Shown one piece after another: positions 1 to 40,623 of a stretch of DNA of 64,000 nt. The notes beneath the pieces are model-generated. The model made no database searches. It saw nothing but the letters and a program-made list of their open reading frames with translations, and had not been told where the DNA came from. Position numbers and translations under genes: made by a program. Each line of letters begins with the position of its first letter. The stretch's first letter is position 1. Origin of the DNA: an uncultured Bacilli bacterium (GTDB taxonomy: Bacteria; Bacillota_I; Bacilli_A; RF39; UBA660); NCBI GenBank assembly GCA_947581765.1, contig CANPVU010000001.1, positions 5,513-69,512 of the forward strand. Reading direction: 5' to 3'.

Positions 1-462
1 GATGCTAGAATCTAATACACAACAAATAGAAGTACAAACATCATTTTTACCCCAAAATTTTCTACAGAACATATCCTTTACTTTATTTTCATATACTCGT
101 CTATAACCGCAAATTGACATATCAATTTTACTATCTAAATTAATATTATTAATTAAAATTTTTAAAAAATCTTTTTCAAGATAATCATCTGAATCAATAA
201 AAGAAATAAAAATTCCTTTTGAAACCTTTAATCCATAATTTCTAGCACTTGATACACCACCATTTTTTTTGTAAAAATATTTAAATCTCAAATCTTTTTT
301 ACAATATTTATTACAAATATTAGAAGAATTGTCAGTCGAACCATCATCTATTATAATAACCTCAAAATTTTTGTACGTTTGTTCAATAATACTCTTCAAA
401 CAACGTTCAATATAATTTTGCGAATTGTAAACTGGAATTATAATTGAGACATCTATTTTCAA
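1..462 (-). CDS. Glycosyltransferase family 2, N-terminal part; gene runs off the window start
   Basis: Reverse-strand translation gives ...DVSIIIPVYNSQNYIERCLKSIIEQTYKNFEVIIIDDGSTDNS...IDSDD, a classic GT2 DxD fold. A TTG/GTG start at about 462-471 overlaps the upstream stop (GTGA), with GAGG as ribosome-binding site. Not in the ORF track because it has no stop inside the window. Confidence 0.6.
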   Translation of the reverse strand, partial: MKIDVSIIIPVYNSQNYIERCLKSIIEQTYKNFEVIIIDDGSTDNSSNICNKYCKKDLRFKYFYKKNGGVSSARNYGLKVSKGIFISFIDSDDYLEKDFLKILINNINLDSKIDMSICGYRRVYENKVKDMFCRKFWGKNDVCTSICCVLDSSI

Positions 463-467
463 GTAAA

Positions 468-1961
468 TCACCTCTGAATTTTTTCTATTCGATAAAACCT
501 TGATATTATACCAAATATAATCATAATAGTTGCATACATTCTAATTCTTACAATAAAATTATAGTACACAAATATTGGAAACAAATAAATAACAAACATT
601 AGCCCACCATAACCAATAATTGAATGAATTTCATTTTTACTCTTTAATAATTTAAATGATCTATAAAATATAATAAAAAAAATTATAATAAAACAGCTAA
701 TTCCTAAAATACCAGATTCTAAAAAAACAGTTCCAAATCCTGTGTTATGATATCCCAAGTTATATGAATATTTTTCATATAAACTAGTATTATAAAATGA
801 CAAATAATTATTGTTTCTTCCAAGTAAATTGTCTCTAAAATCAAACAGAAAATATTGAGGTGGCATAGCGCTTCCAATCCCTAATCCAAAAAATTTCTTT
901 TTTACTGACGTTAAAATATTATTGTACGAATAAATTATTACATCAAATCTACTCATATCCGAATGATTAGTAGCACCAGTGGCATAATAAAAAATATAAT
1001 TTAATAATCCAACACTATTTATTCTACTTTTCCATTTTTGATTAAAAAACAAAAAAGTATAAAATGCAATAATTGAGATTAACGGAACAAAAACAAGTAT
1101 TGCAACCTTTTTATAAGTAATTTCTATGCGTTTTTTTAATTTTTTATTTTTTATTAATATTAATAAAATTTCCAAAATTGGAGCAAGAAGAATTGCAAAC
1201 TTTACTTCACCAAGTATCCAAAACATATAAAATAAAATGTTAAAAAAAAGAAATTTAAAGAAAGAAAATTTATTGTTAATATAAGCCCCTACTACTATTC
1301 CGAATAAGAAAATTGTAATCAAGGAAAAAGGGGTTACACCAAATATTCCAAATATTCCTCCAAAATCATCTACAGAATATTTCCAAAGGAGAATTGGCGC
1401 TGGAATAGCACACTGAATAAGAAATAATTTTATATCCAATTTTTTAAAAAAATTTTTATTAAAAGTTATTATAAAGTATATTGGTAAAGTTCTAAAATAA
1501 ATAAAAGCAACAGAAATTATATTTGAAATGCTATTTCCATTTAGCAATGATATAAATGAAAATAATAAAATAAATAAAACGTAAATATGCAATATTGAAT
1601 CATTTATTTTATTATGAGAACTAAGTCTTGATATTATGAATTTTATTGTTAAAATTAATAGTAATACATCTATAAAATTTAACCAATTTATTGCATTTAT
1701 ACCTATCAATTTTCTATATGTTAAGGTAATAATAAAATACATATATAACATATTATAATAAAAGCAAATTACACTATCAAATAAATTTAATAAAATAAAA
1801 AAAATTATATACAATCCTAAAAGTATGAAACACATTATCATTCCATTAAATCCTAAATTACACTGTATAATTATCCACAAAAAAACAGAAAAAAGAAAAT
1901 TAATTAATGGAATTATAATATAGTTATTTTTTTTACTATTTAGAGTTAAAAAATTTTTCAT
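468..1961 (-). CDS. Polytopic membrane protein, Wzy-like O-antigen/oligosaccharide polymerase
   Basis: 497 aa with more than 10 predicted transmembrane helices and a large extracytoplasmic loop. Sits inside a glycosyltransferase operon. Confidence 0.6.
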   Translation of the reverse strand: MKNFLTLNSKKNNYIIIPLINFLFSVFLWIIIQCNLGFNGMIMCFILLGLYIIFFILLNLFDSVICFYYNMLYMYFIITLTYRKLIGINAINWLNFIDVLLLILTIKFIISRLSSHNKINDSILHIYVLFILLFSFISLLNGNSISNIISVAFIYFRTLPIYFIITFNKNFFKKLDIKLFLIQCAIPAPILLWKYSVDDFGGIFGIFGVTPFSLITIFLFGIVVGAYINNKFSFFKFLFFNILFYMFWILGEVKFAILLAPILEILLILIKNKKLKKRIEITYKKVAILVFVPLISIIAFYTFLFFNQKWKSRINSVGLLNYIFYYATGATNHSDMSRFDVIIYSYNNILTSVKKKFFGLGIGSAMPPQYFLFDFRDNLLGRNNNYLSFYNTSLYEKYSYNLGYHNTGFGTVFLESGILGISCFIIIFFIIFYRSFKLLKSKNEIHSIIGYGGLMFVIYLFPIFVYYNFIVRIRMYATIMIIFGIISRFYRIEKIQR

Positions 1962-1971
1962 ACATACACTC

Positions 1972-2490
1972 CTATTTATAATTTTTTATTACAGATTCTT
2001 TTTTTTGAACTATTAAACTATTTGCTTCATAACTTCCTTTCAAAATTGTACCTGCTCCTACAACTGAATTATCTCCTATAATAGTGTCACGCATAATTAC
2101 GCAATTGGCTCCTATCCAAACGTTATTTCCAATATACACATTACCATTTTTATACCCAACTAAATCATTTTTATAATCGTGATCATGATCAACTATTACA
2201 ACGTTATTAGCAATCTTAACATTATTACCAATTCTTATATTATTTCTAGAAGTTATTGAAACATTAGTATTCAAAAAAACATTTTTTCCAATGATTAAAC
2301 GTCCTTCATCACATACCCGTAATTGAACATTTTTTCTGAAATTACAGTAACTTCCAATTAATAATTTCCCTTTTTTAGAAATTTTTATTTTTAAACAGGA
2401 TTCCCACCTTCTTTGTGGTAATTTCACATCTAAATTTCTATAAATAAATCTCAATATAAAAGGTTTTATTGAATTTATCATTTTTTTCAA
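1972..2490 (-). CDS. Sugar O-acetyltransferase, hexapeptide-repeat left-handed beta-helix family
   Basis: Repeated [LIV]GxxxxI hexapeptides (IGNNVKIANNVVIVDHDHD, IGNNVWIGANCVIM) typical of WbbJ/maltose O-acetyltransferase-like enzymes. Confidence 0.7.
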   Translation of the reverse strand: MKKMINSIKPFILRFIYRNLDVKLPQRRWESCLKIKISKKGKLLIGSYCNFRKNVQLRVCDEGRLIIGKNVFLNTNVSITSRNNIRIGNNVKIANNVVIVDHDHDYKNDLVGYKNGNVYIGNNVWIGANCVIMRDTIIGDNSVVGAGTILKGSYEANSLIVQKKESVIKNYK

Positions 2491-2501
2491 AAAATCACCA
2501 T

Positions 2502-3620
2502 CTATCCTAAAATTTTTATATATATTTTTTCTAATTCAGATACAGTAATCTTTATATCATAACCGGACACTTTTACTTTATCACTCATATTTACACGTTC
2601 ATTTTTACTTGCTTCTAATAATGAATTAACCCATACCGATATTGGTTCTTTTAAAGAAATACGTATTGTTGAACCAGTAACATTCGCCTCATCTGGTATA
2701 GAATCTGATACAACGCATATTAACCCAGATGATTGCGCTTCAATATTAACAATTCCAAATCCCTCATACAAACTTGGTAAAAAGAATACATCCATTGCTT
2801 GATACATATCATTAACATCTTTACGTTGACCTAAAAACAAAACGCTATCCTCTAAGTTTTTTTCAGAAACTAGTCTTTTTATATTGTTTTCCAGTTCACC
2901 TTGACCAATTAAGACTAGAACTGCAGCATTACATTTTTTTTTCAATTCTTCAAAAACATTAATCATAAAAGTATGATTCTTCTGTGAAGTGAATCTACCA
3001 ACATTTCCTATAACAAGTTTGTTTTCTAATTTTAATTCTTTTCTTTTTTTATCTCTTATTTGTTCGTTATAAGAAAATTTATTTGTATTGATTCCATTTT
3101 TTATAATTTTAACTCTTTTCATTCCTTTTTTAGTATACATATATCTAGATGCCAAATTTGAACAAGATAACAACATATCTGATTTATGTTCCAAAATTTT
3201 TTTTATTGGATAAGAAAAAATTTTTTTTATAAATGACCTTCTACCAGCGTTGTGTGAATGAACTATAATTTTTGAATTACTGTATTTTTTAGAAGTATAA
3301 GCAACAATCATATTAAATAATAAAATTCCAGAATTGATATGAATAATATCATATTTATTTTCAAGCAAAAATTTTTTTAATCTTCTGCATAACTTTACTT
3401 TTCCAAATAATGTACTGTTATTAATATTAAATTCATAAACGTTTCCGCCAATATTTATTATCTCGTCAATATATTCAGAGTATGTAGTTTTATTGGGAGT
3501 AAGAAAATCAAATTCAATAATATCTTTATTTATATTTCTATATATATTCAGTAGCATTGCGGACACTCCGCCAAAATTTCTTGAACCAGCGTTAATTTGC
3601 AAAACTCTAATTTTTTTCAC
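2502..3620 (-). CDS. Glycosyltransferase family 4 (GT-B)
   Basis: C-terminal EGFGIVNIEAQSSGLICVVSD motif (E-x7-E donor-binding region). Confidence 0.75.
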   Translation of the reverse strand: MKKIRVLQINAGSRNFGGVSAMLLNIYRNINKDIIEFDFLTPNKTTYSEYIDEIINIGGNVYEFNINNSTLFGKVKLCRRLKKFLLENKYDIIHINSGILLFNMIVAYTSKKYSNSKIIVHSHNAGRRSFIKKIFSYPIKKILEHKSDMLLSCSNLASRYMYTKKGMKRVKIIKNGINTNKFSYNEQIRDKKRKELKLENKLVIGNVGRFTSQKNHTFMINVFEELKKKCNAAVLVLIGQGELENNIKRLVSEKNLEDSVLFLGQRKDVNDMYQAMDVFFLPSLYEGFGIVNIEAQSSGLICVVSDSIPDEANVTGSTIRISLKEPISVWVNSLLEASKNERVNMSDKVKVSGYDIKITVSELEKIYIKILG

Positions 3621-3638
3621 TACTATTCCTCCTAATAA

Positions 3639-4472
3639 TTAATCTTGTTTAACAAATATTATTTCTACGGAATGATTATTTCTTTTATCTATTGGTGGTA
3701 ATTCCATATAATTTCCATATAAGTGTTTCAAGAACTCGTCATAATTTTGAGGGCCATTAAAAAATAAATTCTCAAATTCGTATAGAGCACCTTTTCCATA
3801 CACACTTTTAGGCATCATATCTTTAAATTTATACATTCCCATAAAATTTATAATATACTGCGATTTTTTTATACTACATTTTTTCATCACTTTATCAAGT
3901 TTATACCACATTTTTTCATATGAAAATTTTTTTTGAATTGATGTATGTCTTACAATCCATATTATAATATTTTCATACCAATGTCTCTTTTTATTCAAAG
4001 TAACAATTTCGTCGAATACGGAAATTTGCAACATCATTCTGCGATACAGTAAATGAATTTTTCTTAATCCGATTTTTATCTTATTCTTTGGCATGCCATC
4101 TAGTGGAAATACATCAAGCCAAGCATCACAAAACTCTCCATTTTTATTGTGAGTTCTATATAATTTAATTGAAGGATTTGTTATTCTCAAATAGTATCTA
4201 TGAACATTTTTATCATATAAGAAATGTTTTGCAATATATGGATTATTTAACTCATTTGGTAATACTTCTAATAATTTTTCATAGTCTTCCCTAGGCATTC
4301 TTATATCAGCATCATCATCCCATGGGATAAATCCTTTATGCCTTACAGCACCGAGAAAAGTACCTGCACTTAAATAATATGTAAGATTATTTTTAGAGCA
4401 AATTCTAACAATTTCCTTAAGCATTTCTAACTCAACTAATTGAAGTTGCCTTATGTTATCTACATTATTCAT
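3639..4472 (-). CDS. LicD-family phosphotransferase (phosphocholine/polyol-phosphate transferase)
   Basis: [31 protein letters not shown], the LicD/fukutin-like nucleotidyltransferase-fold signature. Confidence 0.8.
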   Translation of the reverse strand: MNNVDNIRQLQLVELEMLKEIVRICSKNNLTYYLSAGTFLGAVRHKGFIPWDDDADIRMPREDYEKLLEVLPNELNNPYIAKHFLYDKNVHRYYLRITNPSIKLYRTHNKNGEFCDAWLDVFPLDGMPKNKIKIGLRKIHLLYRRMMLQISVFDEIVTLNKKRHWYENIIIWIVRHTSIQKKFSYEKMWYKLDKVMKKCSIKKSQYIINFMGMYKFKDMMPKSVYGKGALYEFENLFFNGPQNYDEFLKHLYGNYMELPPIDKRNNHSVEIIFVKQD

Positions 4473-4488
4473 TTTTTTCCTTTCATAG

Positions 4489-5328
4489 TTACTCGTCTAA
4501 AATAGTAACATGGGCATTTTTTTCGCTATCTTTTGGAGGAATCATATAATCACCATACATTTGTCTCAACACACCATTATAATTTTCTGGCCCAAATAAC
4601 ATATAGTTTTCAAATTTATACTTTTTTCCATTACCATAGTAACATTTTGGAAACATTTCTTTGAATTTATATTGACCCATAAAATTCACAATATAATTTG
4701 AGTTTTCATATGAATATTTTTTTAATAATTTGTCAATTTTATTTAACCACTTGTAAGTATTTTGTTTTCTACCAAAGCCAGTAATCATAACAAATTTTAT
4801 TATTACTCTTTCAGATAAAGGTCGATTAGGTCTTTTTAAATTAACTTTTTCAAAACACGAAATATGATACATAGCTCTAGCAACCAACAATTTTAGCATA
4901 TGAATTTTTCTAATAATAAAATTGTTAGGCATTCCATCTAATGGAAAAATATCAACCCAAACACATTCATTTCTTTCTTTTATACTTCCTAATCGTTTTA
5001 AATTATGTCGTGTATCAACTATTCTTGAAAAATAATAATGGTGTGATTCACTATTCAAATATGTTTGTAACTTTAAATATTCAGGCAAATCTTCAACTAT
5101 CTTTTCTAAAAAAATTTCATACTGTTTTCTTGGTATACCAATATCAATATCATCATCCCATGGGATAAAACCTTCATGCCTTATTGCCCCTAATAAAGTT
5201 CCTCCCAACATATAATATTCAACGTTATTTTTTTCAAGATAATTATATATATAATCAAAAATTTCTATAATCATTTTTTGTATATTTGTTAGGTTGCTAT
5301 TTGACATATTGTTCTCCTTTTTAACCAT
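4489..5328 (-). CDS. LicD-family phosphotransferase, paralog
   Basis: [31 protein letters not shown]. About 35% identical to the preceding gene. Confidence 0.8.
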   Translation of the reverse strand: MVKKENNMSNSNLTNIQKMIIEIFDYIYNYLEKNNVEYYMLGGTLLGAIRHEGFIPWDDDIDIGIPRKQYEIFLEKIVEDLPEYLKLQTYLNSESHHYYFSRIVDTRHNLKRLGSIKERNECVWVDIFPLDGMPNNFIIRKIHMLKLLVARAMYHISCFEKVNLKRPNRPLSERVIIKFVMITGFGRKQNTYKWLNKIDKLLKKYSYENSNYIVNFMGQYKFKEMFPKCYYGNGKKYKFENYMLFGPENYNGVLRQMYGDYMIPPKDSEKNAHVTILDE

Positions 5329-5764
5329 CTATTTTATTATCTATATCATTTCTTAGCATAGTGCTACTTATACCATCAGTATGTTTTATATATATTAAAT
5401 CTACATTGTATGCAGATAATTCTCTTTCTGTTTTTTTCCACCTAGAATTACCTTTCCAATCATCTCCAATGAAAATAACATTATACTTTAATTGATTCAT
5501 TAATTTTACTTTATCTAATGTATCCACAATTATTGCTTTATCAACTGCCTTAATATTTTCTACAATAGTACATCTATTATATTGATTTATTACAGGAGTT
5601 TTATGTTTATATTCTTGAACAAGCTTATCAGAATTAACACCAACAATTAAATAATCGCAATATTTTTTAGCATTATTTATAAGATTTAAATGACCAATAT
5701 GAAACATATCATATACTCCTTGTGTATATCCTATCCTATATTTTTTCATAATTTTTTCTCCCAC
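5321..5764 (-). CDS. Cytidylyltransferase, TagD/CTP:glycerol-3-phosphate cytidylyltransferase family
   Basis: GYTQGVYDMFHIGHLNLI carries the HxGH motif. About 140 aa. Translationally coupled to the upstream gene. Confidence 0.75.
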   Translation of the reverse strand: MGEKIMKKYRIGYTQGVYDMFHIGHLNLINNAKKYCDYLIVGVNSDKLVQEYKHKTPVINQYNRCTIVENIKAVDKAIIVDTLDKVKLMNQLKYNVIFIGDDWKGNSRWKKTERELSAYNVDLIYIKHTDGISSTMLRNDIDNKIDG

Positions 5765-6162
5765 TACTTAGACTTTTTTAAATCTCTTTTAATCTGTGTT
5801 GTACTTATTTCTGGTGTTCTCTTGAGATACACGACTTCAACACCCTCAGACTCTAAAAAATCAAATTTTCCTTTCCAATCATCTCCTATAACAAAAGTAT
5901 CAATATGATACTCATGAGCATCAGTTTTTTTCTGTTCCCAAGAATTTTCTGGAATAACTAAGTCTACATAACGAATTGATTCTAAAAGTGCTTTGCGCTG
6001 TTCATAATTAAAGTAACATTTTTTTTGTTTCATATTCCAATTAAATTCATCTGTTGAAAGAGCAACAACTAGATAGTCCCCTAAAGCCTTAGCTCGTTTC
6101 AAAAGATTTATGTGACCATAATGTAATAAATCAAAAGTCCCATAGGTAATAATTCTTTTCAT
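5764..6162 (-). CDS. tagD: Glycerol-3-phosphate cytidylyltransferase (TagD/TarD-like)
   Basis: ITYGTFDLLHYGHINLLKRAKALGDYLVVALSTDEFN is near-canonical TagD sequence. 132 aa. Confidence 0.8.
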   Translation of the reverse strand: MKRIITYGTFDLLHYGHINLLKRAKALGDYLVVALSTDEFNWNMKQKKCYFNYEQRKALLESIRYVDLVIPENSWEQKKTDAHEYHIDTFVIGDDWKGKFDFLESEGVEVVYLKRTPEISTTQIKRDLKKSK

Positions 6163-6421
6163 TTAATCCCCTCTATTTAATTTTGAATAAAATTCACAAA
6201 GTGAACCCCTTTGTGAACCCCCCCTGTCAATGTGTATATAATACCACAAATTCGACAAAAGTCAAATCGTTTTTTTTGATTTTTTTTTAAGTTTACATTA
6301 ATTGATATTTTTTATTATATAAAGGCTAATTTAATGAATTCATAAATGGGTTCACTCAATGAGATAATTATTTTTAAAAAATCACTAAAAAAATTGCCTC
6401 TTAGTCGTTTATTAATTAGAT
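6163..6421. promoter_or_regulatory. Divergent promoter region between two cassettes
   Basis: AT-rich 259-bp gap between divergent operons. Palindrome TTCACAAAG-N7-CTTTGTGAA at 6193-6217. GTGAACCC appears twice (6201-6208, 6213-6220), which reads GGGTTCAC on the minus strand. ATAAAT-GGGTTCACT at 6342-6356 sits upstream of the plus-strand operon. Confidence 0.5.
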
Positions 6422-6940
6422 ATGGTGAAAAAAATGAAAAAAAATTTTAGAATTGAGTTTCATGTTCACACAATTGCATCTAAAGATAGTTTGCTTACAA
6501 AATGGTTTATGCTTTTTATGTTAAAAATTAAAAAGATAAATGCTATTGCTATAACAGATCATAATGAGATTAAAGGTGCACTTAAATATAAAGATTTCTT
6601 CAAAAAGAAGAATATTGATGTCATTGTTGGCGAAGAGATTTTTACAGCTGATGGAGAAATAATTGGTCTATTTTTGAAAAGAAAAATTCAAGAAGGAATG
6701 AGTGCAATTGATACTGTGAAAGAAATAATTAATCAAAATGGATTTGTTTATATTCCACATCCATATGATGAAAAAAGAAAAGATACTGTATTAACAAAAA
6801 AAGCATTACAAGAAATATATAAATATGTTGACTTTATTGAAGTCCACAATGGTAGAAACATATCTTACGAATTTTCAGAAAAACAAAATGAAATCGCAAA
6901 TGATTTTACTTTAAGAAAAGTTGTTGGAAATTTTTTTTAA
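6422..6940 (+). CDS. PHP-domain metal-dependent phosphoesterase (short form)
   Basis: N-terminal FHVHTIASKDS and ITDHNEI His/Asp metal-binding motifs of the PHP family. Could be a CpsB-like phosphatase. 172 aa is short for the family. Confidence 0.5.
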   Translation: MVKKMKKNFRIEFHVHTIASKDSLLTKWFMLFMLKIKKINAIAITDHNEIKGALKYKDFFKKKNIDVIVGEEIFTADGEIIGLFLKRKIQEGMSAIDTVKEIINQNGFVYIPHPYDEKRKDTVLTKKALQEIYKYVDFIEVHNGRNISYEFSEKQNEIANDFTLRKVVGNFF

Positions 6941-8100: not shown

Positions 8101-8109
8101 TATTTTGAA

Positions 8110-11147: not shown

Positions 11148-11164
11148 GGTAGGTGCTTTGATAT

Positions 11165-25912: not shown

Positions 25913-25941
25913 ATTTTGTTATAAAAATATATTTACATTAA

Positions 25942-27111: not shown

Positions 27112-27126
27112 AAATTTATCACTACC

Positions 27127-28326: not shown

Positions 28327-28334
28327 ATTAGCAC

Positions 28335-30529: not shown

Positions 30530-30548
30530 TTTTTAGAAAGGAGTAATA

Positions 30549-31433: not shown

Positions 31434-31436
31434 TTT

Positions 31437-32528: not shown

Positions 32529-32548
32529 ATTTATAAGGAGATTAGAAA

Positions 32549-33484: not shown

Positions 33485-34833
33485 AAATTGGAGTTTCCAT
33501 GAAAAAAGTAATTACATACGGAACATACGATTTATTACATTATGGTCATATTCGGTTACTTGAAAGAGCCAAAGCTTTAGGGGATTATTTAATCGTAGCT
33601 GTAACATCCGATGATTATGATAAGTCACGTGGAAAAATCAATGTCAAACAATCGTTAATTGAACGTGTAGAAGCGGTACGTAAAACCGGACTTGCAGATG
33701 AAATAATTGTAGAAGAATATGAAGGTCAAAAAATTGATGATATTAAAAAATTTGATATTGATATATTTACTGTAGGTTCAGATTGGAAAGGTGTATTTGA
33801 TTATCTTTCAGAATATTGTGAGGTTGTTTATTTGGATAGAACTGAAGGAATTTCTAGTTCTGAACTTAGAAAATCAGAATATTTAATCAATTTAGGAATT
33901 GTAGGAGATTCATCATTTTTAAATAGAATTGAAAAAGAAGCTAAATTTGTTAATGGTATTGTATTATCTGGAATTTGTACAAATAAATGTGAAAAAATGT
34001 CTAATGCAATTTTGAAACTTCCTTTGGTAACTGATAACTACAAAACTTTATTAGAACATTCAGATGCTGTTTATATTCATTCAATACCTGAGGAACATTA
34101 TGTCCAAATTAAACAAGCATTACAAATGGGAAAACATGTTCTTTGTGAATCACCTATTGCTATGTCAATGGTTGAGTGGGAGGAACTACAAAAAATTGCA
34201 AAACAAAATAATTGTATCTTGATGGATGCCCTAAGAACTGCATATTCTACTGCATTTTGTAGATTATTACTTTTAGCAAAAACTGGTAAGATTGGGAAAG
34301 TACTATCAGTAGATGCTACTTGTACTAGTTTACGAAAAATTGATAAAAATCAACTATCCAAATCTTGGAATAGTATTTCAGCATGGGGACCCACTGCATT
34401 GTTACCGATATTTCAATTATTTGGTACAGAATATAAAATAAAGCAGATTGTTTCAAATTTTATTGATTCTAATCAAACGTTTGATTCATTTACTAAAATT
34501 TCATTTGTTTATCAAAATTCAGTGGCATCTCTAAAGGTAGGCATGGGGCTAAAATCTGAAGGAGAATTAATTATATCTGGTACAAAAGGATATATATACG
34601 TCCCTTCCCCATGGTGGAAAACTGACTATTTTGAAATTAGATATGAAAATCCATCTGAAAACAAGAGATATTTTTATCAACTTGATGGTGAAGGTATTAG
34701 ACTAGAACTTGTAACTTTTGCAAAATCTATATCTAGTGGAAAAAATCTTTCGTCAATAGACCAAGAAGTGTCTAAAGCAATTTGTAAAATTTTAGAAGAT
34801 TTTAAAAACTGTGAAGATATGATTATTATTTAA
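33475..34833 (+). CDS. Fusion protein: TagD-family cytidylyltransferase (N-terminal) plus Gfo/Idh/MocA-like oxidoreductase (C-terminal)
   Basis: N-terminal VITYGTYDLLHYGHIRLLERAKALGDYLIVAVTSDDYD. The C-terminal ~320 aa start LGIVGDSSF (Rossmann) with the dehydrogenase alpha/beta layout. Confidence 0.65.
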   Translation: MDIKIGVSMKKVITYGTYDLLHYGHIRLLERAKALGDYLIVAVTSDDYDKSRGKINVKQSLIERVEAVRKTGLADEIIVEEYEGQKIDDIKKFDIDIFTVGSDWKGVFDYLSEYCEVVYLDRTEGISSSELRKSEYLINLGIVGDSSFLNRIEKEAKFVNGIVLSGICTNKCEKMSNAILKLPLVTDNYKTLLEHSDAVYIHSIPEEHYVQIKQALQMGKHVLCESPIAMSMVEWEELQKIAKQNNCILMDALRTAYSTAFCRLLLLAKTGKIGKVLSVDATCTSLRKIDKNQLSKSWNSISAWGPTALLPIFQLFGTEYKIKQIVSNFIDSNQTFDSFTKISFVYQNSVASLKVGMGLKSEGELIISGTKGYIYVPSPWWKTDYFEIRYENPSENKRYFYQLDGEGIRLELVTFAKSISSGKNLSSIDQEVSKAICKILEDFKNCEDMIII

Positions 34834-34851
34834 GGAGCTGCGATATAGAAT

Positions 34852-35856
34852 ATGAAAAATAATAAACAAATCGAAAAAATTGATTTTGTAATTATATGGG
34901 TTGATGGAGATGATCCAGAATGGCAAAAAGAATATAATAAGTACAGAAATGTTGATGGTGATAAAAGAAATTCACGTTTTAGAGATATGGAATTATTGCA
35001 ATATTGGTTTAGAGGTGTAGAGAAATTTACTCCATGGGTAAATAAGATATATTTTGTTACATGCGGTCAAAAACCTACATGGTTAAACACTAATCATCCA
35101 AAACTTGTATGTATAAATCATAAAGATTATATACCTAAACAATATCTTCCTACTTTCTCAAGTCATACAATTGAGGACAATTTACATAGAATTAAGGATT
35201 TAAGTGAACGTTTTGTTTATTTTAATGACGATACATTTATAATCAAATCAATGCAACCAGAAGATTTTTTTAAAAATGGTCTTCCATGTGAATCTGCAGT
35301 TATGAACTATTCAGCCCCAAGAAAAGAACCACTCAATCTTGTTCCTTTTGTTAATGTGGCAACAATCAATAGAAATTTTATAAAAAAAGATGTATTAAGG
35401 AAAAATTTAAGAAAGTTTTTTTCCTTTAAATATAATAAATATTTAATAAAGAATTTCCAGTTTATTATTGGTACATGGTTTCCTGGATTTAAATATTTTC
35501 ACTTACCAACGTCATTCTTAAAATCTACCTTTGAAGAAGTGTGGCAAAAAGAATATGACCTACTTGATAAAACCAGTAGTCACAAATTTCGTGTTCTTAC
35601 AGACGTTAATCAATGGCTATTTAAAGATTGGCAAATATGTAGTGGAAAATTTTATCCTAGAAACACAAACATCGGATATTATGCAGTAATCGATAGTGAT
35701 ACTGCTTTGTATAATGCTATTGCAGCTATGAAAAAAAGAAAATATAAACTATTTTGTGCTAATGATGAAGATTATGAAAATTTTGATTTGATGAAATCAG
35801 AACTAAAAAAAGCATTCAATGACTTGCTACCCGAAAAAAGTAAATTTGAAATATAG
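34852..35856 (+). CDS. Stealth-family capsular hexose-1-phosphoryltransferase
   Basis: Stealth conserved regions: IDFVIIWVDGDDPEW (CR1), ELLQYWFRGVEKFTPWVNKIYFVTCGQ (CR2), FVYFNDD (CR3). Confidence 0.7.
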   Translation: MKNNKQIEKIDFVIIWVDGDDPEWQKEYNKYRNVDGDKRNSRFRDMELLQYWFRGVEKFTPWVNKIYFVTCGQKPTWLNTNHPKLVCINHKDYIPKQYLPTFSSHTIEDNLHRIKDLSERFVYFNDDTFIIKSMQPEDFFKNGLPCESAVMNYSAPRKEPLNLVPFVNVATINRNFIKKDVLRKNLRKFFSFKYNKYLIKNFQFIIGTWFPGFKYFHLPTSFLKSTFEEVWQKEYDLLDKTSSHKFRVLTDVNQWLFKDWQICSGKFYPRNTNIGYYAVIDSDTALYNAIAAMKKRKYKLFCANDEDYENFDLMKSELKKAFNDLLPEKSKFEI

Positions 35857-35867
35857 TAAGGTGTTGT

Positions 35868-36959
35868 ATGTTGAAATCAAAAAAAAATATTTTATTTTAT
35901 ATCTCATGGATTCTTTATTCTAGTTCATACTTCTTATTTGTTGCTTCAAGTTTGAAATACATAACTAACATTCATGCATATTATAAATTCTTTCAATATA
36001 TTGTAATTTTTTTACTTGCAATACAATTAATAAAATTAAAATATAATTTAAAAAATTTTTTAATAATTACTCTTTTGATTATTTTAGCATTTTTGGTTAT
36101 GAACATGGAAATTATGATTATAATACTTTTTATACTGTGTGCGAGAAATATCAATATAAAAAAATTTTTAAATTTTGATATTAAATTGAAATTGTTTTGG
36201 ATTATATCTATTATTTTTTTATTTATTATAGGAATATTACCTAATGTAGATGGTATTTTTTATCAAACATATAAACAATCATTTGGATTTCAACACCCAA
36301 ATACGTTAGCAATGAATTCATATCTAGTAATGATAGAATTTCTTAGTATTAAATTTAAAAATTTAAAACGTTTAGATATTATTTTATTATTTATTTTATT
36401 CATATTTGTGAATTCTATTACACATTCACGAACAGCAGGATATTCATTTGTTTTTTTATTTATTTTTACATTGATATCAAAAATATATCCAAAAGTTTTT
36501 AATCTAAAAATTGTAAAAATTGCAATAATTTTTCTTGCCCCGATGTTAGCACTTTTGACTGTATATTTAACTTTACAATATAGCTCTGGAAGTGATTTTA
36601 TTTTATCTTTAAATAAATTACTTTCTGGTAGAATCTTTTTGCAATATATGAATATGAAAAAATATAAAATTACATTATTTGGTCAAGAATTTGATGAATC
36701 TTTTATGTATTTTTTAGATAGTGGATATCTAAGGGCATTACTAGAATTCGGATTATTATTTTTAGTTTTAATGTGTACATTATATATTAGATTGATGCAT
36801 AAATGTTTAAAAAATAAAGAATATGGATTAACAATTCTTATTATATTTTGTGTGCTCTTAGGTTTCACTGAAAGCTCATTTTTGAAAATTGTTGTAAATG
36901 TCTCGTTTATATTATTTTTAAACAATGAATTAAGAAAAAAAATAGATAGTTTTGATTGA
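35868..36959 (+). CDS. Wzy-like polymerase membrane protein
   Basis: 363 aa, about 10 transmembrane helices, sits between Stealth and GT2 genes. Confidence 0.55.
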   Translation: MLKSKKNILFYISWILYSSSYFLFVASSLKYITNIHAYYKFFQYIVIFLLAIQLIKLKYNLKNFLIITLLIILAFLVMNMEIMIIILFILCARNINIKKFLNFDIKLKLFWIISIIFLFIIGILPNVDGIFYQTYKQSFGFQHPNTLAMNSYLVMIEFLSIKFKNLKRLDIILLFILFIFVNSITHSRTAGYSFVFLFIFTLISKIYPKVFNLKIVKIAIIFLAPMLALLTVYLTLQYSSGSDFILSLNKLLSGRIFLQYMNMKKYKITLFGQEFDESFMYFLDSGYLRALLEFGLLFLVLMCTLYIRLMHKCLKNKEYGLTILIIFCVLLGFTESSFLKIVVNVSFILFLNNELRKKIDSFD

Positions 36960-36986
36960 TTTTTTTACTAAATATGAGGTGATAAA

Positions 36987-37970
36987 GTGAACAAATTAGT
37001 ATCAATTATAATCCCTGTTTATAATGTTGAAAAATATTTAAATAGATGTGTTGAAAGTGTTGTAAACCAAATCTATAAAAATATTGAAATTATTTTGGTA
37101 GATGATGGTTCTCCAGATTCTTGCGGGAAAATGTGTGATGAATGGGGTAAAAAAGATTTGAGGATTAAAGTTATTCATAAAAAAAATGGTGGTCTGTCTG
37201 ATGCTAGAAACTTTGGTTTAAAAATAGCAACAGGAGAATACGTGCTATTTGTAGATTCAGATGATTGGATTTCAACTTCAATGGTTAAAGATATGGTCGA
37301 AAATATGGAAAAAAATAACGTCGATATGGTAATTTGCCAATTTTATCTTGCGTATGCAAACGGTAAAAAAATATGCAAATATAACAATATAATTGAAAAT
37401 CAAATATTTGATGTTAGACAGACTATTAAATTATTGCTAGATGATAAAATAATTACAAATCATATTTGGAGAAAATTATATAAAAGAAGGTTATTATATT
37501 CTAATTGTTTTCCAATTGGAATGAATTATGAAGATATTTATGTAATGCCTAAATTAATTTTTTCTTGCAAAAAAATATATTATACTAATAATCCATATTA
37601 TTACTATTTTCAAAATCAAAATAGTATTACGAATACAGCATCTTATAAAAATTCACTTGATCATTTTAAAGCAAAAAAACATAGTTTTGAACAAATTATA
37701 GAAAAATTTCCTGAAATGAAGCAAGAAGTTAAAATTATACAAGAAAAAACAATATTACATATATGCAATAATTTGATTAAGAATGAAAACAATTACAAGT
37801 TAACTAAATTAAAATTGAACATATTTACTGAATTAAGGAAAGAAAGTAAAAATTTAAATGGCTTAGATTTAAAATTCGGGCAAATGATTTTATTTAAAAC
37901 TTTTAAGCATTCTTTTAAAATTTTTCTAATACTTTGTTGGTTAAAAAAAATATATACTAGGAAAGGATAA
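36987..37970 (+). CDS. Glycosyltransferase family 2
   Basis: VSIIIPVYNVEKYLNRCVESVVNQ...ILVDDGSPDS...VDSDD. GTG start. Confidence 0.75.
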   Translation: MNKLVSIIIPVYNVEKYLNRCVESVVNQIYKNIEIILVDDGSPDSCGKMCDEWGKKDLRIKVIHKKNGGLSDARNFGLKIATGEYVLFVDSDDWISTSMVKDMVENMEKNNVDMVICQFYLAYANGKKICKYNNIIENQIFDVRQTIKLLLDDKIITNHIWRKLYKRRLLYSNCFPIGMNYEDIYVMPKLIFSCKKIYYTNNPYYYYFQNQNSITNTASYKNSLDHFKAKKHSFEQIIEKFPEMKQEVKIIQEKTILHICNNLIKNENNYKLTKLKLNIFTELRKESKNLNGLDLKFGQMILFKTFKHSFKIFLILCWLKKIYTRKG

Positions 37971-37974
37971 TAAA

Positions 37975-39051
37975 ATGAATTTAAGCAGAAAAAAATTTTT
38001 TATCAAGAATTTTCTTAAAATGATAATAGGATATTTTTTAAATATTAAGAATTTTAAAAATTATGACGAAAATACTATATTCTTTATAGGCGTGCCAGAG
38101 TATGGAAATTTAGGTGATCAGGCAATTGCTAAAGCTGAAATAAACTTTTTAAAAAAAATTTTACCTGAAAGTGAAATTGTGGTTATTACAGAGAAAAAAA
38201 GTATGGAAAATTTACTATGCATAAAAAAAACAACTAATAAATTTCACAATATTTGTACATTCATTGGTGGTGGAAATATGGGAGATTTATATTTTTTTCA
38301 AGAAAATCTTAGATTAACTGCAATAAAATTATTAAAAAAAGGAAAAATTATTATATTTCCTCAATCTATAGATTATAATGGAACCTCAAAACGATATAAA
38401 AAAGCAAAAAAAATATATGAGTCACATGATAATTTATTTTTATTTACACGTGAAAAAAATAGTGAGAAAAAAAGGAAATTATTATTTCCAATGTGCAAAG
38501 GTGGATTAGTTCCTGACATAGTATTATCATTAGAACCTAAAATTGAAAAAATAACTAGAAATGGAATTTACTTTTGCCTTAGAAATGACATAGAAAAAAA
38601 TGATAAAAGCTTAAAAATTATAACTGAATTAGAAAATTTTTCAAAAAAATTAAATTTTGAAATTAAAAAAATAGATACTAGTTGTTCTAAATATTGTACA
38701 AAATATGAAAAACAAAATATGCAATTAACTAATTTTCTAAAAGAGTTTTCTAAAGCTAATATAATTATAACAGATCGACTACATGGAATGATATTCAGTG
38801 TTATAACAAATACACCCTGTGTGGCTTTCGATAACACTACTGGAAAAAATAAGAGTCTATATAACACATGGCTAAATAAAGAAATGGTTTGTTTTATCGA
38901 TAATATTAATGATATTGAAAAAGCTAAATATTATATAAAAAAACATCAACAAAATAATCAGTATAATAAGAATTATCTGAATGAAATTAATAAATATTAT
39001 AAAATTTTAGAAAAAAGTATATTAGATTTTTACCAAAAAAGTTTTAAATAA
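37975..39051 (+). CDS. Polysaccharide pyruvyl transferase (CsaB/WcaK family)
   Basis: GNLGDQAIAKAE... and C-terminal ITDRLHGMIFSVITNTPCVAFDN, typical of PS_pyruv_trans. Confidence 0.7.
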   Translation: MNLSRKKFFIKNFLKMIIGYFLNIKNFKNYDENTIFFIGVPEYGNLGDQAIAKAEINFLKKILPESEIVVITEKKSMENLLCIKKTTNKFHNICTFIGGGNMGDLYFFQENLRLTAIKLLKKGKIIIFPQSIDYNGTSKRYKKAKKIYESHDNLFLFTREKNSEKKRKLLFPMCKGGLVPDIVLSLEPKIEKITRNGIYFCLRNDIEKNDKSLKIITELENFSKKLNFEIKKIDTSCSKYCTKYEKQNMQLTNFLKEFSKANIIITDRLHGMIFSVITNTPCVAFDNTTGKNKSLYNTWLNKEMVCFIDNINDIEKAKYYIKKHQQNNQYNKNYLNEINKYYKILEKSILDFYQKSFK

Positions 39052-39114
39052 ATTTGATTAAAAATTCATATGCTTATTTACAATCATTTTAGATTGGAGA
39101 TGAAAATCTGAATA

Positions 39115-40623
39115 ATGCGCACAAAAAAGTCAATTACAAACATATTTTTCAACTTCAGCAATCAATTTATTACTTTAATTTTAAGCTTTTTTTCAAGAAA
39201 CATTTTTATCCATACATTAGGTGTTGAATATCTTGGAATAAATGGACTATTTAGTGATGTTTTAGGAATGTTATCACTTGCAGATTTAGGATTTAATACA
39301 GCAATGGTTTATAGCTTTTATAAGCCTATTGCTGAAAACAATCAAGAAAAGATTTCAGCTTTAATAACATTTTATCGAAAAATATATAATTTAATAGCAA
39401 TTGCTATTTCAATTATTGGTCTATGCTTAACACCTTTCATAAAATATATTGTTAATACAGATAAATCAATTTCAAACCTCGAAATTTATTATTTATTTGC
39501 ACTAACAGGTGTAGTAATATCATATTTATTTGTTTATAAAACTTCTATAATAACAGCTGATCAAAAAAATTATATTGTAACAAGAATTACAATTGTTACA
39601 AATATAATAAAAACAATAATTCAAATAATATCATTAATTATATTTAAAAATTTTATTATGTATTTATCTATAAATATATTATTTAATTTGTTAAACAATA
39701 TAATTGCTTCACATAAAGCTGTTACTATGTATCCATATATAAAAAACAAAAGAAATTTACCAAAAAGTGAGATTAAAAACATATTTATAAATTTAAAATC
39801 TGTATTTTTATATAAACTTTCTTCTTTAATGTTAAATGCTACAGACAATATTTTAATCTCTATAATTGTTGGTACTATAGCTGTTGGATATTATTCAAAT
39901 TATTTAATGATTAGTAATAAACTTTCACAAATTATTTCCTTATTTTTTACATCTGTAACTGCAAGTATAGGAAATATTATTGTAAAAGAAAAAGCATCTA
40001 AAAGATATGAAATATTTTCTGTTGAACAATCAATAAGTTTTATTATAAGTGGAATTGTTATACCATGTTTTACAATACTTATAAATGATTTAATTATACT
40101 ATGGTTAGGAAAAGATTATTCATTAGGATATGTTTTAGCAATTGTATTAGCTTTAAACTTATATCTTTCTTGTGTTTTACAACCATTATGGTCATATAGA
40201 GAAGCAACTGGTTTATACCAAAAAACAAAATGGATTATGTTTATATGTGCAATTATTAATATTGTTTTGTCAATTATATTTGGTTTACTATTTGGACTAT
40301 CCGGTATAATATTAGCATCATTCATTGCTAGAATATCAACATATGTGTGGTATGAACCTCATATTTTATTTAAAGAATATTTCGAAAGTCCTCCATATAC
40401 ATACTTTAAAGATTTAATAAAAAATTTTATTACTATAATAATCATTACTGTATTTTTATTTATTATATCTTCTAAATTTACTTCAATATCATTTACTACA
40501 CTTATAATTAAAGGTTTAATTTGTAGCACAGTATCTATTCTTATGATATTAGTAATTTATAAGAATAGTGATGGTATTAAATATTTAAAGAAGAAATTAA
40601 TAAGGAAGAAAAATAAACTTTAA
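39115..40623 (+). CDS. Wzx-type flippase (MOP superfamily)
   Basis: 502 aa, 12-14 transmembrane helices. Confidence 0.7.
   Translation: MRTKKSITNIFFNFSNQFITLILSFFSRNIFIHTLGVEYLGINGLFSDVLGMLSLADLGFNTAMVYSFYKPIAENNQEKISALITFYRKIYNLIAIAISIIGLCLTPFIKYIVNTDKSISNLEIYYLFALTGVVISYLFVYKTSIITADQKNYIVTRITIVTNIIKTIIQIISLIIFKNFIMYLSINILFNLLNNIIASHKAVTMYPYIKNKRNLPKSEIKNIFINLKSVFLYKLSSLMLNATDNILISIIVGTIAVGYYSNYLMISNKLSQIISLFFTSVTASIGNIIVKEKASKRYEIFSVEQSISFIISGIVIPCFTILINDLIILWLGKDYSLGYVLAIVLALNLYLSCVLQPLWSYREATGLYQKTKWIMFICAIINIVLSIIFGLLFGLSGIILASFIARISTYVWYEPHILFKEYFESPPYTYFKDLIKNFITIIIITVFLFIISSKFTSISFTTLIIKGLICSTVSILMILVIYKNSDGIKYLKKKLIRKKNKL

Follow-up and report, generated by a model that had tools for sequence, protein, structure and literature searches.

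The first 40,623 nucleotides of the window (the whole 64,000-nt stretch of DNA that was analysed) comprise four head-to-head and tail-to-tail operons, cassettes A(-), B(+), C(-) and D(+). Each cassette has its own MOP-family Wzx and its own Wzy/WaaL-superfamily membrane protein, and taken together they also encode TagF-like, LicD, Stealth, TagD-like, LicC/A-like and IspD-like enzymes (Table 1). Cassette D is followed by a tyrosine recombinase gene, and then by a lone Bac_transf phosphoglycosyl transferase (PGT) and one LCP. ORFs were found at the coordinates and on the strands given in an earlier note on this DNA, and agree with the operon layout that it proposed. The paralogs of the four cassettes are 25–53% identical in amino acid sequence, except for a head common to B and C (98.6–98.7%), and the claim of four distinct Wzx/Wzy-type cassettes is borne out. 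The locus belongs to an uncultured gut Firmicute of very low GC content, most closely related to 'Bacilli' MAGs from human, rabbit and ruminant guts.

Table 1. Features of the glycopolymer super-locus (window coordinates; cassette C in transcription order)
Feature	Position	Strand	Remarks
Super-locus, A(-) B(+) C(-) D(+)			ca. 48 kb, partly upstream of window
Cassette A	1–6162 in window	-	Pfam/NCBIfam; extends ca. 4.2 kb upstream of window
A: GT2, N-terminal part	1–462	-	
A: Wzy-like	468–1961	-	profile comparison
A: hexapeptide acyltransferase	1972–2490	-	
A: GT4	2502–3620	-	
A: LicD	3639–4472	-	
A: second LicD	4489–5328	-	
A: cytidylyltransferase	5321–5764	-	
A: TagD	5764–6162	-	passes TagD equivalog
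A: remaining GT2, pyruvyl transferase, Wzx (472 aa), Fer4 protein, FrhB_FdhB_C protein			beyond window
A/B divergent control region	6163–6421		
Cassette B	6422–15318	+	Pfam, NCBIfam
B: PHP phosphoesterase	6422–6940	+	
Inverted-repeat arm 1, left copy	6902–8093	+	
B: GT4/DUF1972	6976–8100	+	
Inverted-repeat arm 2, left copy	8115–9211	+	radical-SAM/SPASM gene
B: radical-SAM/SPASM	8122–9309	+	
B: 612-aa HAD-like protein	9309–11147	+	
B: Wzy	11165–12358	+	Wzy_C
B: TagF-like	12351–13499	+	
B: TagD-like	13486–13914	+	
B: Wzx	13915–15318	+	
Cassette C	15388–29456	-	Pfam, NCBIfam, hhalign
Inverted-repeat arm 1, right copy	28339–29530	-	
C: GT4/DUF1972	28335–29456	-	
C: GT4	27127–28326	-	
C: another GT4	25942–27111	-	
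Inverted-repeat arm 2, right copy	24800–25896	-	
C: radical-SAM/SPASM	24786–25898	-	
C: GT2	23643–24749	-	
C: Wzy-like	22363–23646	-	hhalign
C: sulfatase-fold protein	21185–22366	-	
C: DXD glycosyltransferase	20356–21183	-	
C: Wzx	18920–20359	-	
C: TagF-like	17770–18939	-	
C: nucleotidyltransferase + choline-kinase fusion (LicC/A-like)	16107–17702	-	
C: IspD/TarI-like	15388–16104	-	
Bidirectional terminator-like hairpin	29558–29613		directly upstream of C head
GGGTTCACT facing cassette D	29617–29625	+	
Cassette D	29651–40623	+	Pfam, NCBIfam, fold comparison, strain comparison
D: LicD	29651–30529	+	likely true start 29699
D: second LicD	30549–31433	+	
D: class-V aminotransferase	31437–32528	+	
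D: OCD/mu-crystallin-family dehydrogenase	32549–33484	+	
D: TagD-like + GFO/IDH/MocA fusion	33475–34833	+	
D: Stealth	34852–35856	+	
D: Wzy-like	35868–36959	+	
D: GT2	36987–37970	+	
D: pyruvyl transferase	37975–39051	+	
D: Wzx	39115–40623	+	
Tyrosine recombinase (Phage_integrase; Xer/integron-integrase-like)	40674–41597	+	
Small stand-alone PGT (Bac_transf, 227 aa)	41655–42338	-	
LCP (LytR-CpsA-Psr) ligase	42488–44023	-	N-terminal membrane/extra domain
Acyl_transf_3 O-acyltransferase	44077–45183		after LCP

Domains were assigned with Pfam and NCBIfam profiles. The Wzx proteins of cassettes B, C and D score 68.1, 77.1 and 30.9 bits, respectively, against Pfam Polysacc_synt (cut-off 28.2 bits), and near-identical contigs place a fourth, that of cassette A, ca. 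1.6–3.0 kb upstream of window position 1. The three Wzx counted earlier therefore all stand, but the true count is four; the lower figure was an artefact of the window edge, beyond which the cassette A gene lies (genes of cassette A outside the window were read from contigs 99.9% identical to it). Of the Wzy-like proteins, that of cassette B passes Wzy_C (42.4 bits, cut-off 31.7), that of cassette C has a weak match under the cut-off (16.7 bits), and those of cassettes A and D have no match in Pfam or NCBIfam. The family profile of the cassette A protein aligns with the cassette C protein (hhalign 99.9%, E 1e-34) and with the cassette D family (96%, E 4.7e-9), and all four proteins are polytopic in the membrane, with a big loop near the C-terminus. 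The Wzy_C matches and hhalign thus link all four proposed Wzy-like proteins to the Wzy/WaaL superfamily – a protein of this fold may also act as a ligase or an extracytoplasmic GT-C enzyme instead of a polymerase.

The same profiles confirmed the four LicD proteins and the two TagF-like enzymes (as Glyphos_transf) of the earlier note. Its four TagD-family enzymes are indeed CTP_transf_like proteins, though only the last gene of cassette A in Table 1 passes the TagD equivalog. There is a single NTP_transf_3 and choline-kinase fusion and a single IspD/TarI-like enzyme. The figure of 'about 13' glycosyltransferases holds roughly only with the two TagF-like enzymes included; without them there are nine Leloir enzymes (one cut off at the window start) and one Stealth. 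The set of TagF-like, LicD, TagD, LicC/A-like, IspD-like and Stealth enzymes points to phosphodiester-containing, teichoic-acid-like repeat units, and backs the teichoic-acid-like character suggested before. Domain searches of the non-antisense ORFs of at least 100 aa in the whole window found no Wzz, CpsC or CpsD domains, in agreement with the reported lack of a Wzz/CpsCD chain-length tyrosine kinase.

No priming transferase is encoded in any of cassettes A–D. The PGT gene is flanked by terminator-like hairpins and apparently monocistronic, and its protein is 100% identical in a sister strain. The recombinase gene, also between terminator-like hairpins, adjoins the PGT gene in both strains, and in four other organisms homologs of it (28–45% identity) lie close to a PGT or GT4/DUF1972 gene. 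One initiating transferase and one LCP had been placed outside the cassettes; both are there, but the 'LCP' at 41655–44023 spans the two genes. These counts are for the locus region, and further priming enzymes or LCPs may be encoded elsewhere in the genome. The fourth Wzx, the recombinase gene, a 2.3-kb inverted repeat, a shared motif and a swap of cassette D were absent from the earlier note.

In the conspecific sister strain, 29628–40620 is swapped for a different 8.3-kb cassette, from promoter motif to terminator (breakpoints 29627/29628 and 40620/40621), while the flanks are 99.6% identical between the strains. The replacement encodes a Wzx and a Wzy-like protein (hhalign 94.8%) of its own, along with a pyruvyl transferase, a GT2, a TagD-like enzyme and two LicD. 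B and C are ca. 99% conserved despite the exchange; not all of the cassettes are fixed, and the comparison of related genomes that could have refuted the earlier reading thus speaks for it. The motif GGGTTCACT precedes A, B and D in sense orientation; in front of D it overlaps a -35-like TTCACT (TTCACT-16-TATCAT), and sister-strain homology stops 2 nt past it. The two strains' sequences show that the cassettes are modules that can be exchanged, framed by a promoter/leader motif and a terminator, and that D was exchanged through recombination in the conserved flanks.

We consider it likely, with some reserve, that this is a single cell-wall glycopolymer super-locus of four self-contained cassettes with a common PGT and LCP. 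The mechanism is drawn from the established Wzx/Wzy pathway and from knowledge of the TagF, LicD, Stealth and LCP families. The lone monotopic PGT would put the first sugar-phosphate on undecaprenyl phosphate, and this primer would be extended by each of A, B, C and D with its own glycosyltransferases, its own phospho-alcohol or sugar-phosphate transferases (TagF-like, LicD, Stealth) and its own enzymes for CDP-activated alcohols, giving phosphodiester-containing, teichoic-acid-like repeat units with pyruvyl or acetyl groups. Each unit would be flipped by the cassette's own Wzx and polymerised or ligated by its own Wzy/WaaL-fold protein, and the LCP would join the product to peptidoglycan. The activity of the individual cassettes and the making of a separate polymer by each are points that we infer, and so is any use of them as alternatives or in combination.

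Some of the precursor genes seem mismatched. The LicC/A-like fusion is in C, apart from the LicD genes, which are all in A and D, and there is no TarJ beside the IspD-like gene of C; both observations argue against fully independent cassettes. Enterococcal EPA and lactococcal CWPS consist of a backbone plus decorations. A tentative alternative is that the cassettes cooperate (for example, as the divergent pairs A+B and C+D) on one or two such composite wall polysaccharides, with some of the Wzy/WaaL-fold proteins acting as ligases that join sub-chains. The split of LicC/A-like and IspD-like genes from LicD and the head common to B and C would fit this, as would the EPA model, in which Wzx/Wzy-made teichoic decorations are joined to another chain (PMC7188991). 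However, each cassette is complete, with Wzx, Wzy-like protein, glycosyltransferases and activated-alcohol genes, and D alone gave way to a non-homologous cassette, with B and C staying 99% conserved. Since D is exchangeable alone, independent modules fit better than a composite product.

The common head of B and C, GT4/DUF1972 and radical-SAM/SPASM, is present as a 2.3-kb split inverted repeat. The left copy of arm 1 contains the final 39 nt of the PHP gene, a 35-nt spacer and almost the whole of GT4/DUF1972, and there are 0 mismatches in 1159 nt between 6902–8060 and the reverse complement of 28372–29530. The two copies of arm 2 have 10 mismatches, none of them within 8173–9079 (907 nt), and mismatches in both arms are confined to the edges. 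In the right copy of arm 1 a remnant of the PHP 3' end survives although the gene itself is missing there, so the C head was copied from a B-type head. The sister-strain left arm (the only one recovered) differs from that of strain 1 at 4 of 118 and 15 of 907 positions (1.7–3.4%), and the unique DNA between the arms differs by 0.78%. Identity of the arms within strain 1, against this divergence between strains, indicates that the two head copies are kept identical by gene conversion, in concerted evolution. Dozens of related gut loci have the canonical order PGT, GT4/DUF1972, (GT4), rSAM, and eventually Wzx, and the heads of B and C are therefore normal operon heads that lack the PGT. B and C share their first committed steps, GT4/DUF1972 and then radical-SAM/SPASM.

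Cassette C has no GGGTTCACT upstream and has the terminator-like hairpin there instead (16-bp stem, U-runs on both strands, -20 kcal/mol, z = -7.3). The minus strand of 29300–29800 yielded no sigma-70-like site, promoter prediction being weak in DNA of 24% GC. With a hairpin in front and no shared promoter motif, C may not be expressed as arranged. It is conceivable, if rather unlikely, that B and C form an expression-site switch, in which the inverted heads undergo reciprocal homologous recombination and flip the 15.5–20 kb between them, exchanging the B and C bodies, with phase-variable, exclusive expression of B or C; the sole active promoter would be upstream of the PHP gene, and the other body would be silent behind the hairpin. 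Crossovers between inverted arms give inversions, and the identity over 1159 and 907 nt, edge-only mismatches and concerted evolution relative to the sister strain suggest ongoing recombination between the arms. The right arm, with its PHP remnant, no promoter motif and a strong bidirectional terminator-like hairpin before it, would also fit a silent site, and assemblies from several samples break within the arms. However, gene conversion alone explains the arm identity, the promoter prediction is weak, and every arm-spanning contig, including a strain-2 contig across arm 2, has the window arrangement. The alternative junctions (PHP-GT4DUF-GT4-GT4 or GT4-rSAM-HAD612) are in no contig, an absence that carries no weight, since short-read graphs are the same for both isomers and short-read assembly cannot fix the orientation of DNA between perfect inverted repeats.

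GGGTTCACT is also found at 6200–6208 (- strand, toward A) and 6348–6356 (+ strand, toward B), in an 18-nt imperfect inverted repeat (6200–6217 and 6339–6356, 89% complementary) that encloses 121 nt. This segment holds the best predicted sigma-70-like site (6265 to 6238, - strand), and the A leader (6193–6217) has a 13-bp hairpin and a U-run. It seems improbable that the tyrosine recombinase inverts this segment as an A/B toggle, whose inverted junction would read TTCACAAAGTGAACCCATTTATG, or exchanges cassettes at the motif. The repeat does surround the best promoter-like site, which now faces A; a recombinase gene is within the locus, with homologs near PGT or GT4/DUF1972 genes elsewhere; and the D replacement breakpoint is 2 nt from the motif. 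But the A/B region is 100% identical and in one orientation in the four of four contigs examined, the core of the repeat is just 9 nt, and the single GGGTTCACT upstream of D is more in keeping with an element of promoter, operator or leader type than with a site of recombination.

The organism is known from metagenome assemblies alone, and short-read assemblers struggle with perfect repeats that exceed the insert size, but it is highly improbable that either the concatenation or the inverted repeat arose as a strain chimera in a metagenome bin – unitigs stop precisely where the arms do, as a true repeat would give, the arm edges have copy-specific SNPs, and B, C and the flanks are arranged the same way in a second strain. 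Independent contigs from other samples bridge each of the junctions A/B, B/C, C/D and D/recombinase/PGT/LCP at 99.9–100% identity, and the cassette arrangement is therefore not a chimeric assembly.

The four-cassette architecture is not as unusual as had been supposed. Lactobacillus plantarum WCFS1 has a 49-kb region of three adjacent cps clusters (cps1–3), two of which lack a priming glycosyltransferase, with a separate priming glycosyltransferase at the edge of the region (PMC3539956). It resembles the present locus in its adjacent clusters and separate priming transferase, with three clusters as against four here. Enterococcus faecalis EPA, with teichoic acids made by Wzx/Wzy with LicD and TarI (PMC7188991), likewise combines LicD/TarI-type genes with Wzx/Wzy. 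The locus thus elaborates on multi-capsule loci that are already known, and adds two unreported traits: the identical 2.3-kb inverted head on B and C, and the cassette swap in a sister strain.

The locus spans ca. 48 kb, from an FrhB-like gene to the LCP gene, and the window is very AT-rich throughout (GC 0.20-0.31). ORFs of at least 100 aa were found at the gene coordinates given in the earlier note, and Pfam and NCBIfam scans of every sizeable ORF reproduced its four operons in alternating orientation, A(-) B(+) C(-) D(+). Cassette A extends upstream of the window, where the rest of its GT2 gene and genes for a pyruvyl transferase, a Polysacc_synt Wzx of 472 aa, and Fer4 and FrhB_FdhB_C proteins were read from a metagenome contig (99.945% identical to window positions 1-18100) plus a second look-up. 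Apart from the shared heads of B and C, paralog pairs between cassettes have protein identities of 25-53%.

Features of the four-cassette locus, and of the cassette (D') that a sister strain carries at the position of D
Feature	Position	Strand	Content
Cassette A	1-6162	-	GT2 (N-terminal part only), 497-aa membrane protein, hexapeptide acyltransferase, GT4, 2 LicD, 2 cytidylyltransferases
Cassette B	6422-15318	+	PHP phosphoesterase, GT4/DUF1972, radical-SAM/SPASM, 612-aa HAD-like protein, Wzy_C protein, TagF-like, TagD-like, Wzx
Cassette C, first genes	15388-29456 (whole C)	-	GT4/DUF1972, 2 GT4, radical-SAM/SPASM, GT2, 427-aa membrane protein
Cassette C, remainder		-	sulfatase-fold protein, DXD glycosyltransferase, Wzx, TagF-like, nucleotidyltransferase + choline-kinase fusion, IspD/TarI-like
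Cassette D	29651-40623	+	2 LicD, class-V aminotransferase, OCD-family dehydrogenase, TagD-like + GFO fusion, Stealth, 363-aa membrane protein, GT2, pyruvyl transferase, Wzx
Tyrosine recombinase	40674-41597		after D
PGT	41655-42338		Bac_transf, 227 aa
LCP	42488-44023		followed by an Acyl_transf_3 protein
Cassette D' (sister strain)			Fer4/FrhB protein, Wzx, 442-aa Wzy-like, pyruvyl transferase, GT2, TagD-like enzyme, two LicD
Inverted repeat, arm 1	6894-8093 with 28339-29538		left copy in B, right copy in C
Inverted repeat, arm 2	8115-9242 with 24769-25896		left copy in B, right copy in C
GGGTTCACT(TTGTGA) element	6200-6208 (A), 6348-6356 (B), 29617-29625 (D), L101 about 20010-20025 (D')

There is one Wzx flippase per cassette. 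Those of B, C and D score above the Pfam gathering cut-off for Polysacc_synt, and A's has a Polysacc_synt match in precomputed Pfam annotation. The total is four rather than the three counted in the earlier note, from which A's was hidden by the window edge.

All four Wzy-like proteins are polytopic, with a large loop ahead of the last helices. B's (11165-12358) passes Wzy_C and C's (22363-23646) matches it weakly; for those of A (468-1961) and D (35868-36959) every library came up empty, even with the limit relaxed to E = 10. Among 14 homologs of D's protein is one named as an oligosaccharide repeat unit polymerase. For A's protein, a word-indexed search returned just 3 homologs, and an AF2 model (pLDDT 48.8) was unusable for assignment. 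An exhaustive profile search found 123 relatives, with 3 of the 100 scanned matching Wzy_C, and the profile of this family aligned with C's protein (hhalign 99.9%, E 1e-34, 368 columns) and with D's family (96%, E 4.7e-9), with no match to B's Wzy. The family placement of A's protein rests on the exhaustive search and these profile alignments. We conclude that all four belong to the Wzy/WaaL superfamily, each a putative polymerase or ligase, and at this level the four Wzy-like proteins of the earlier note stand. B's Wzy is annotated in forms of 311 aa and 397 aa, for which slipped-strand phase variation was rejected as the cause, as both have identical DNA and differ in the start codon picked by the gene caller.

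The chain-length module reported missing by the earlier note is indeed missing – no Wzz, GNVR, CpsC, CpsD/CbiA-type or related domain was found in any ORF scanned in the window (Pfam/NCBIfam), and the sole candidate, a 172-aa PHP-domain protein (6422-6940), does not match the CpsB models. As to TagO-type initiation, the TagA/TagB enzymes of the linkage unit and the TagGH exporter, the window has no Glycos_transf_4 (MraY/WecA-type) protein, TagA or ABC transporter. From the classical ABC-transporter-dependent wall teichoic acid set it encodes only TagF-family (Glyphos_transf) and TagD-family enzymes, and A's last cytidylyltransferase passes the NCBIfam TagD equivalog (201.7 bits, cut-off 165.4). 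The NTP_transf_3 + Choline_kinase fusion, the four LicD and the IspD/TarI-like protein are all below equivalog cut-offs. Scans of the window found no TarJ-type reductase, and Rfam and tRNA scans of it were empty.

In D, 31437-34833 encodes a PhnW/AepZ-like class-V aminotransferase, an SbnB/OCD-like dehydrogenase and a fusion of a TagD-like cytidylyltransferase to a GFO/IDH/MocA oxidoreductase, with two LicD genes adjoining; the trio may provide a route to a CDP-activated amino-polyol or amino-alcohol phosphate. The 612-aa protein of B (9309-11147) has an N-terminal HAD-phosphatase domain and a C-terminal region of ca. 400 aa with no family match; a 54% identical counterpart also follows a radical-SAM gene in one related gut locus (L108), and another (L031) has two copies. 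A third (L177, a contig of SRR10504711) has the gene order GT4 - hexapeptide acyltransferase - A1-like (69% identical), which indicates that the core of an A-type cassette circulates in related organisms.

Within the window there is, as the earlier note had it, a single initiating transferase and a single LCP protein, both outside the cassettes. The PGT has a Bac_transf score of 208.5 bits and the LCP a LytR_cpsA_psr score of 130.4 bits (Pfam). The PGT gene stands alone, with terminator-like hairpins on either side. Its closest relatives among species-representative genomes (the best 71% identical) are from uncultured gut 'Bacilli' MAGs (Hadza humans, rabbits, sheep, 'Mycoplasma sp. CAG:956'); the best non-self match of HisRS is 80% identical. 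A recurrent gene order in these MAGs and in gut metagenome contigs is PGT, GT4/DUF1972, (GT4), radical-SAM/SPASM, further genes, pyruvyl transferase, Wzx. The B-type head (GT4/DUF1972 then radical-SAM) and the C-type head (GT4/DUF1972, GT4, further genes, radical-SAM) are both found elsewhere, normally with a PGT immediately upstream, so the cassettes of the window are ordinary cassettes minus their own PGT. Four other gut organisms (L008, L030, L114, L116) have homologs of the tyrosine recombinase (28-45% identity) in the neighbourhood of a PGT or GT4/DUF1972 gene, which suggests a recurrent association with such loci.

The radical-SAM/SPASM genes (8122-9309 and 24786-25898) are the most conserved of the three compared across gut loci (L010, L011, L040, L107-L163), with identities of 79-91%, against 54-79% for GT4/DUF1972 and 37-71% for the PGT, and are nearly always one or two genes past GT4/DUF1972. 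Judged by sequence, the solved proteins nearest to it are SPASM enzymes that modify peptides, such as SkfB, and nothing relevant was found in the literature on radical-SAM/SPASM enzymes in Wzy loci. A role as anaerobic sulfatase maturase for the sulfatase-fold protein of C was judged unlikely, because that protein lacks the C/S-x-P-x-R motif and B has a radical-SAM gene but no sulfatase gene. This very conserved enzyme is placed at step two or three of these pathways and has a putative role in glycan synthesis.

The heads of B and C are joined by a split inverted repeat. In arm 1, 6902-8060 is identical to its partner base by base over 1159 nt; in arm 2, 8115-9211 has 10 mismatches to its partner, none of them within 8173-9079 (907 nt). 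The mismatches are confined to the arm edges. Two extra GT4 genes (25942-28326) separate the arms in C. The right copy of arm 1 starts with a leftover of the 3' end of a PHP gene at a site with no PHP gene, indicating that the C head was copied from a B-type head. No large inverted repeat was found in 109 related loci, each covering +/-10 kb, a span that arms 20 kb apart would escape.

A sister strain from other samples (strain 2) shares the repeat. At the nucleotide level it matches the window (strain 1) with 99.2% identity over the unique portion of the B and C tails, and with 99.6% over the right flank. The start of its right arm adjoins its cassette at the D position, and its contigs break within the arms. 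Against strain 1, its left arm has 15 differences over the 907 positions of the arm-2 core and 4 over 118 positions of the arm-1 tail, while at these strain-variable positions the two arms of strain 1 have no differences from each other. Arms identical within strain 1, with a left arm that differs between the strains, bear the signature of gene conversion since the strains split. The inverted repeat is ancestral and evolving in concert, and recombination between its arms clearly happens.

Cassette D is not shared by the two strains. Strain 2 matches the window from 52337 to 40621, across the flank and the genes for the LCP, the PGT (identical as a protein) and the recombinase. Next comes D', 8.3 kb of unrelated sequence, and the match resumes from 29627 to 29458. 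The proteins of D' are 27-74% identical to proteins of the window, and its 442-aa protein is related to the Wzy-like family of A and C (hhalign 94.8%). One breakpoint is 2 nt past the promoter motif, and the other is at the stop codon of D's Wzx, directly ahead of its terminator. Cassettes are swapped between strains as promoter-to-terminator modules, and the fixity of all four, which the earlier note had set against its own reading, does not hold.

The motif at the first breakpoint, GGGTTCACT, has exactly 3 copies in 64 kb (0.12 expected; none of 100 shuffles reached 3). All are within the two divergent intergenic regions, in sense orientation upstream of A, B and D. The copy ahead of D' in strain 2 is GGGTTCACTTTGTGA, the same as the A copy. 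The motif upstream of D overlaps a -35-like hexamer, and in the leader of A it folds into a 13-bp hairpin ahead of a U-run (-13.6 kcal/mol, z = -5.5). The element is a candidate -35/activator site, operator or ops-like leader element. C has no copy, and no sigma-70-like site was found upstream on its strand; its head is preceded by a 16-bp bidirectional terminator-like hairpin (-20 kcal/mol, z = -7.3).

The inverted heads may also act as a homologous-recombination switch, although we consider this unlikely. A flip-flop of 15.5-20 kb would put the body of B or of C, the part behind the shared head, at the sole promoter-bearing site, and the other body would be silent at a site insulated by the terminator; an event confined to arm 2 would join heads to new tails. 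The perfect arms exceed the insert size, so all isomers would give one and the same assembly graph, and the orientation of the inner segment in strain 1 is that of the assembly. Alternative head-tail junctions of B and C were absent from the other assemblies, whose short-read graphs cannot tell isomers apart, and one strain-2 contig that crosses arm 2 has the B-type configuration. We know of no description of antigenic variation of whole glycopolymer operons by such a switch in Wzx/Wzy loci; if the inverted heads drive inversion, phase variation of entire polysaccharide operons would have a new mechanism. A promoter inversion between A and B finds no support in the assembled contigs. The locus has a recombinase gene, and between A and B an 18-nt imperfect inverted repeat surrounds 121 nt (6218-6338) holding the best promoter-like site; this segment, the inverted form of which would be marked by the junction sequence TTCACAAAGTGAACCCATTTATG, has the same orientation and 100% identity in all 4 contigs.

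The right flank has features of its own. A gene at 58479-59291 (-) encodes only the C-terminal half of a penicillin-binding protein (PBP; Transpeptidase profile positions 120-298, plus PASTA), and directly upstream is a large serine recombinase gene (59361-60950, -; Resolvase + Recombinase + Zn_ribbon). The arrangement at 58479-60950 looks like the insertion of a mobile element or prophage in the PBP gene, much as with intervening elements of the 'skin' type. The stretches 46043-47590, 51685-56839 and 61269-63875 encode a bacterial serpin of 515 aa and three large surface proteins; the surface proteins carry Listeria-Bacteroides repeats and Big_2 domains, and the repeats are direct repeats in the DNA at 61.3-64.0 kb.

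The gene content, a shared PGT and LCP that stand alone, the exchange of D as a module and the homogenised heads of B and C are directly supported. What is well established for the Wzx/Wzy pathway, and for the TagF, LicD, Stealth and LCP families, then suggests a mechanism. Und-P would be primed by the PGT, each cassette would assemble, flip and polymerise its own phosphodiester-containing repeat unit, and the LCP protein would join the products to peptidoglycan. GT4/DUF1972 and the radical-SAM enzyme would give the B and C units the same core at the reducing end. The cassettes may depend on one another in part, since the LicC/A-like fusion is in C and all LicD genes are in A and D. Surface glycans govern the encounters of gut bacteria with phages and the immune system, and here a lineage without a cultured representative spends ca. 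48 kb on four teichoic-acid-like Wzx/Wzy pathways served by one priming enzyme, with two cassettes holding a 2.3-kb head identical through recombination.

The locus has parts in common with several known systems. The capsule loci of Bacteroides are scattered over the genome, and every one has an invertible promoter and UpxY/UpxZ regulators to itself. Like them, this gut commensal locus devotes much coding capacity to alternative surface glycans and has a recombinase gene, but its cassettes are contiguous, share a priming enzyme and showed no inversion. In streptococcal cps serotype switching, a non-homologous cassette is exchanged among conspecifics between conserved flanks in housekeeping genes. 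The swap of D is similar, between conspecific strains and with conserved flanks, but the unit is one of four cassettes and the breakpoints are at a promoter motif and a terminator. The lic/tar genes for S. pneumoniae teichoic acid are scattered and make a single polymer. Apparently shared with that system are the small Bac_transf initiator, LicA/LicC-type activation, LicD, a cytidylyltransferase of TarI type and a MOP flippase, as well as the polymerisation of repeat units on a lipid carrier and attachment by an LCP protein; unlike it, the locus yielded no TarJ and has LicA- and LicC-like parts fused, with choline or another amino-alcohol as candidate substrate.

Two systems are closer. The teichoic-acid-like decorations of E. 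faecalis EPA are proposed to be made by a Wzx/Wzy-type route, with LicD-family phosphotransferases, a TarI homolog, a Bac_transf-type initiator, a Wzy-like/O-antigen-ligase-like protein and LCP ligases; there is one Wzx and one Wzy, and the rhamnan that carries the decoration is made via an ABC transporter (Guerardel et al. 2020, PMC7188991). This locus differs in having four Wzx/Wzy sets, no rhamnan genes and no ABC transporter. L. plantarum WCFS1 has three adjacent cps clusters, cps1-cps2-cps3, in a 49-kb strain-variable region with transposase genes between the clusters (Remus et al. 2012, PMC3539956). Of these, cps1 and cps3 have no priming glycosyltransferase and are thought to borrow one encoded elsewhere, including lp_1233 at the edge of the region, while cps2 has its own Wzd/Wze/Wzh module and priming glycosyltransferase, and the products are ordinary heteropolysaccharides (PMC3539956). 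Adjacent Wzx/Wzy clusters, cassettes without a PGT and strain-variable content are therefore common to both loci, and the architecture is less unusual than the earlier note proposed. Here, however, none of the four cassettes carries a PGT and a tyrosine-kinase module is missing; the cassettes stand in two divergent pairs, teichoic-type phosphotransferases are abundant, and two cassettes share a perfect inverted head. The locus merges a multi-cluster region of the L. plantarum type with a teichoic Wzx/Wzy route of the EPA type, and adds to both the loss of the PGT from all four cassettes, the mirror-image pairing of cassettes and a gene-converted inverted head.
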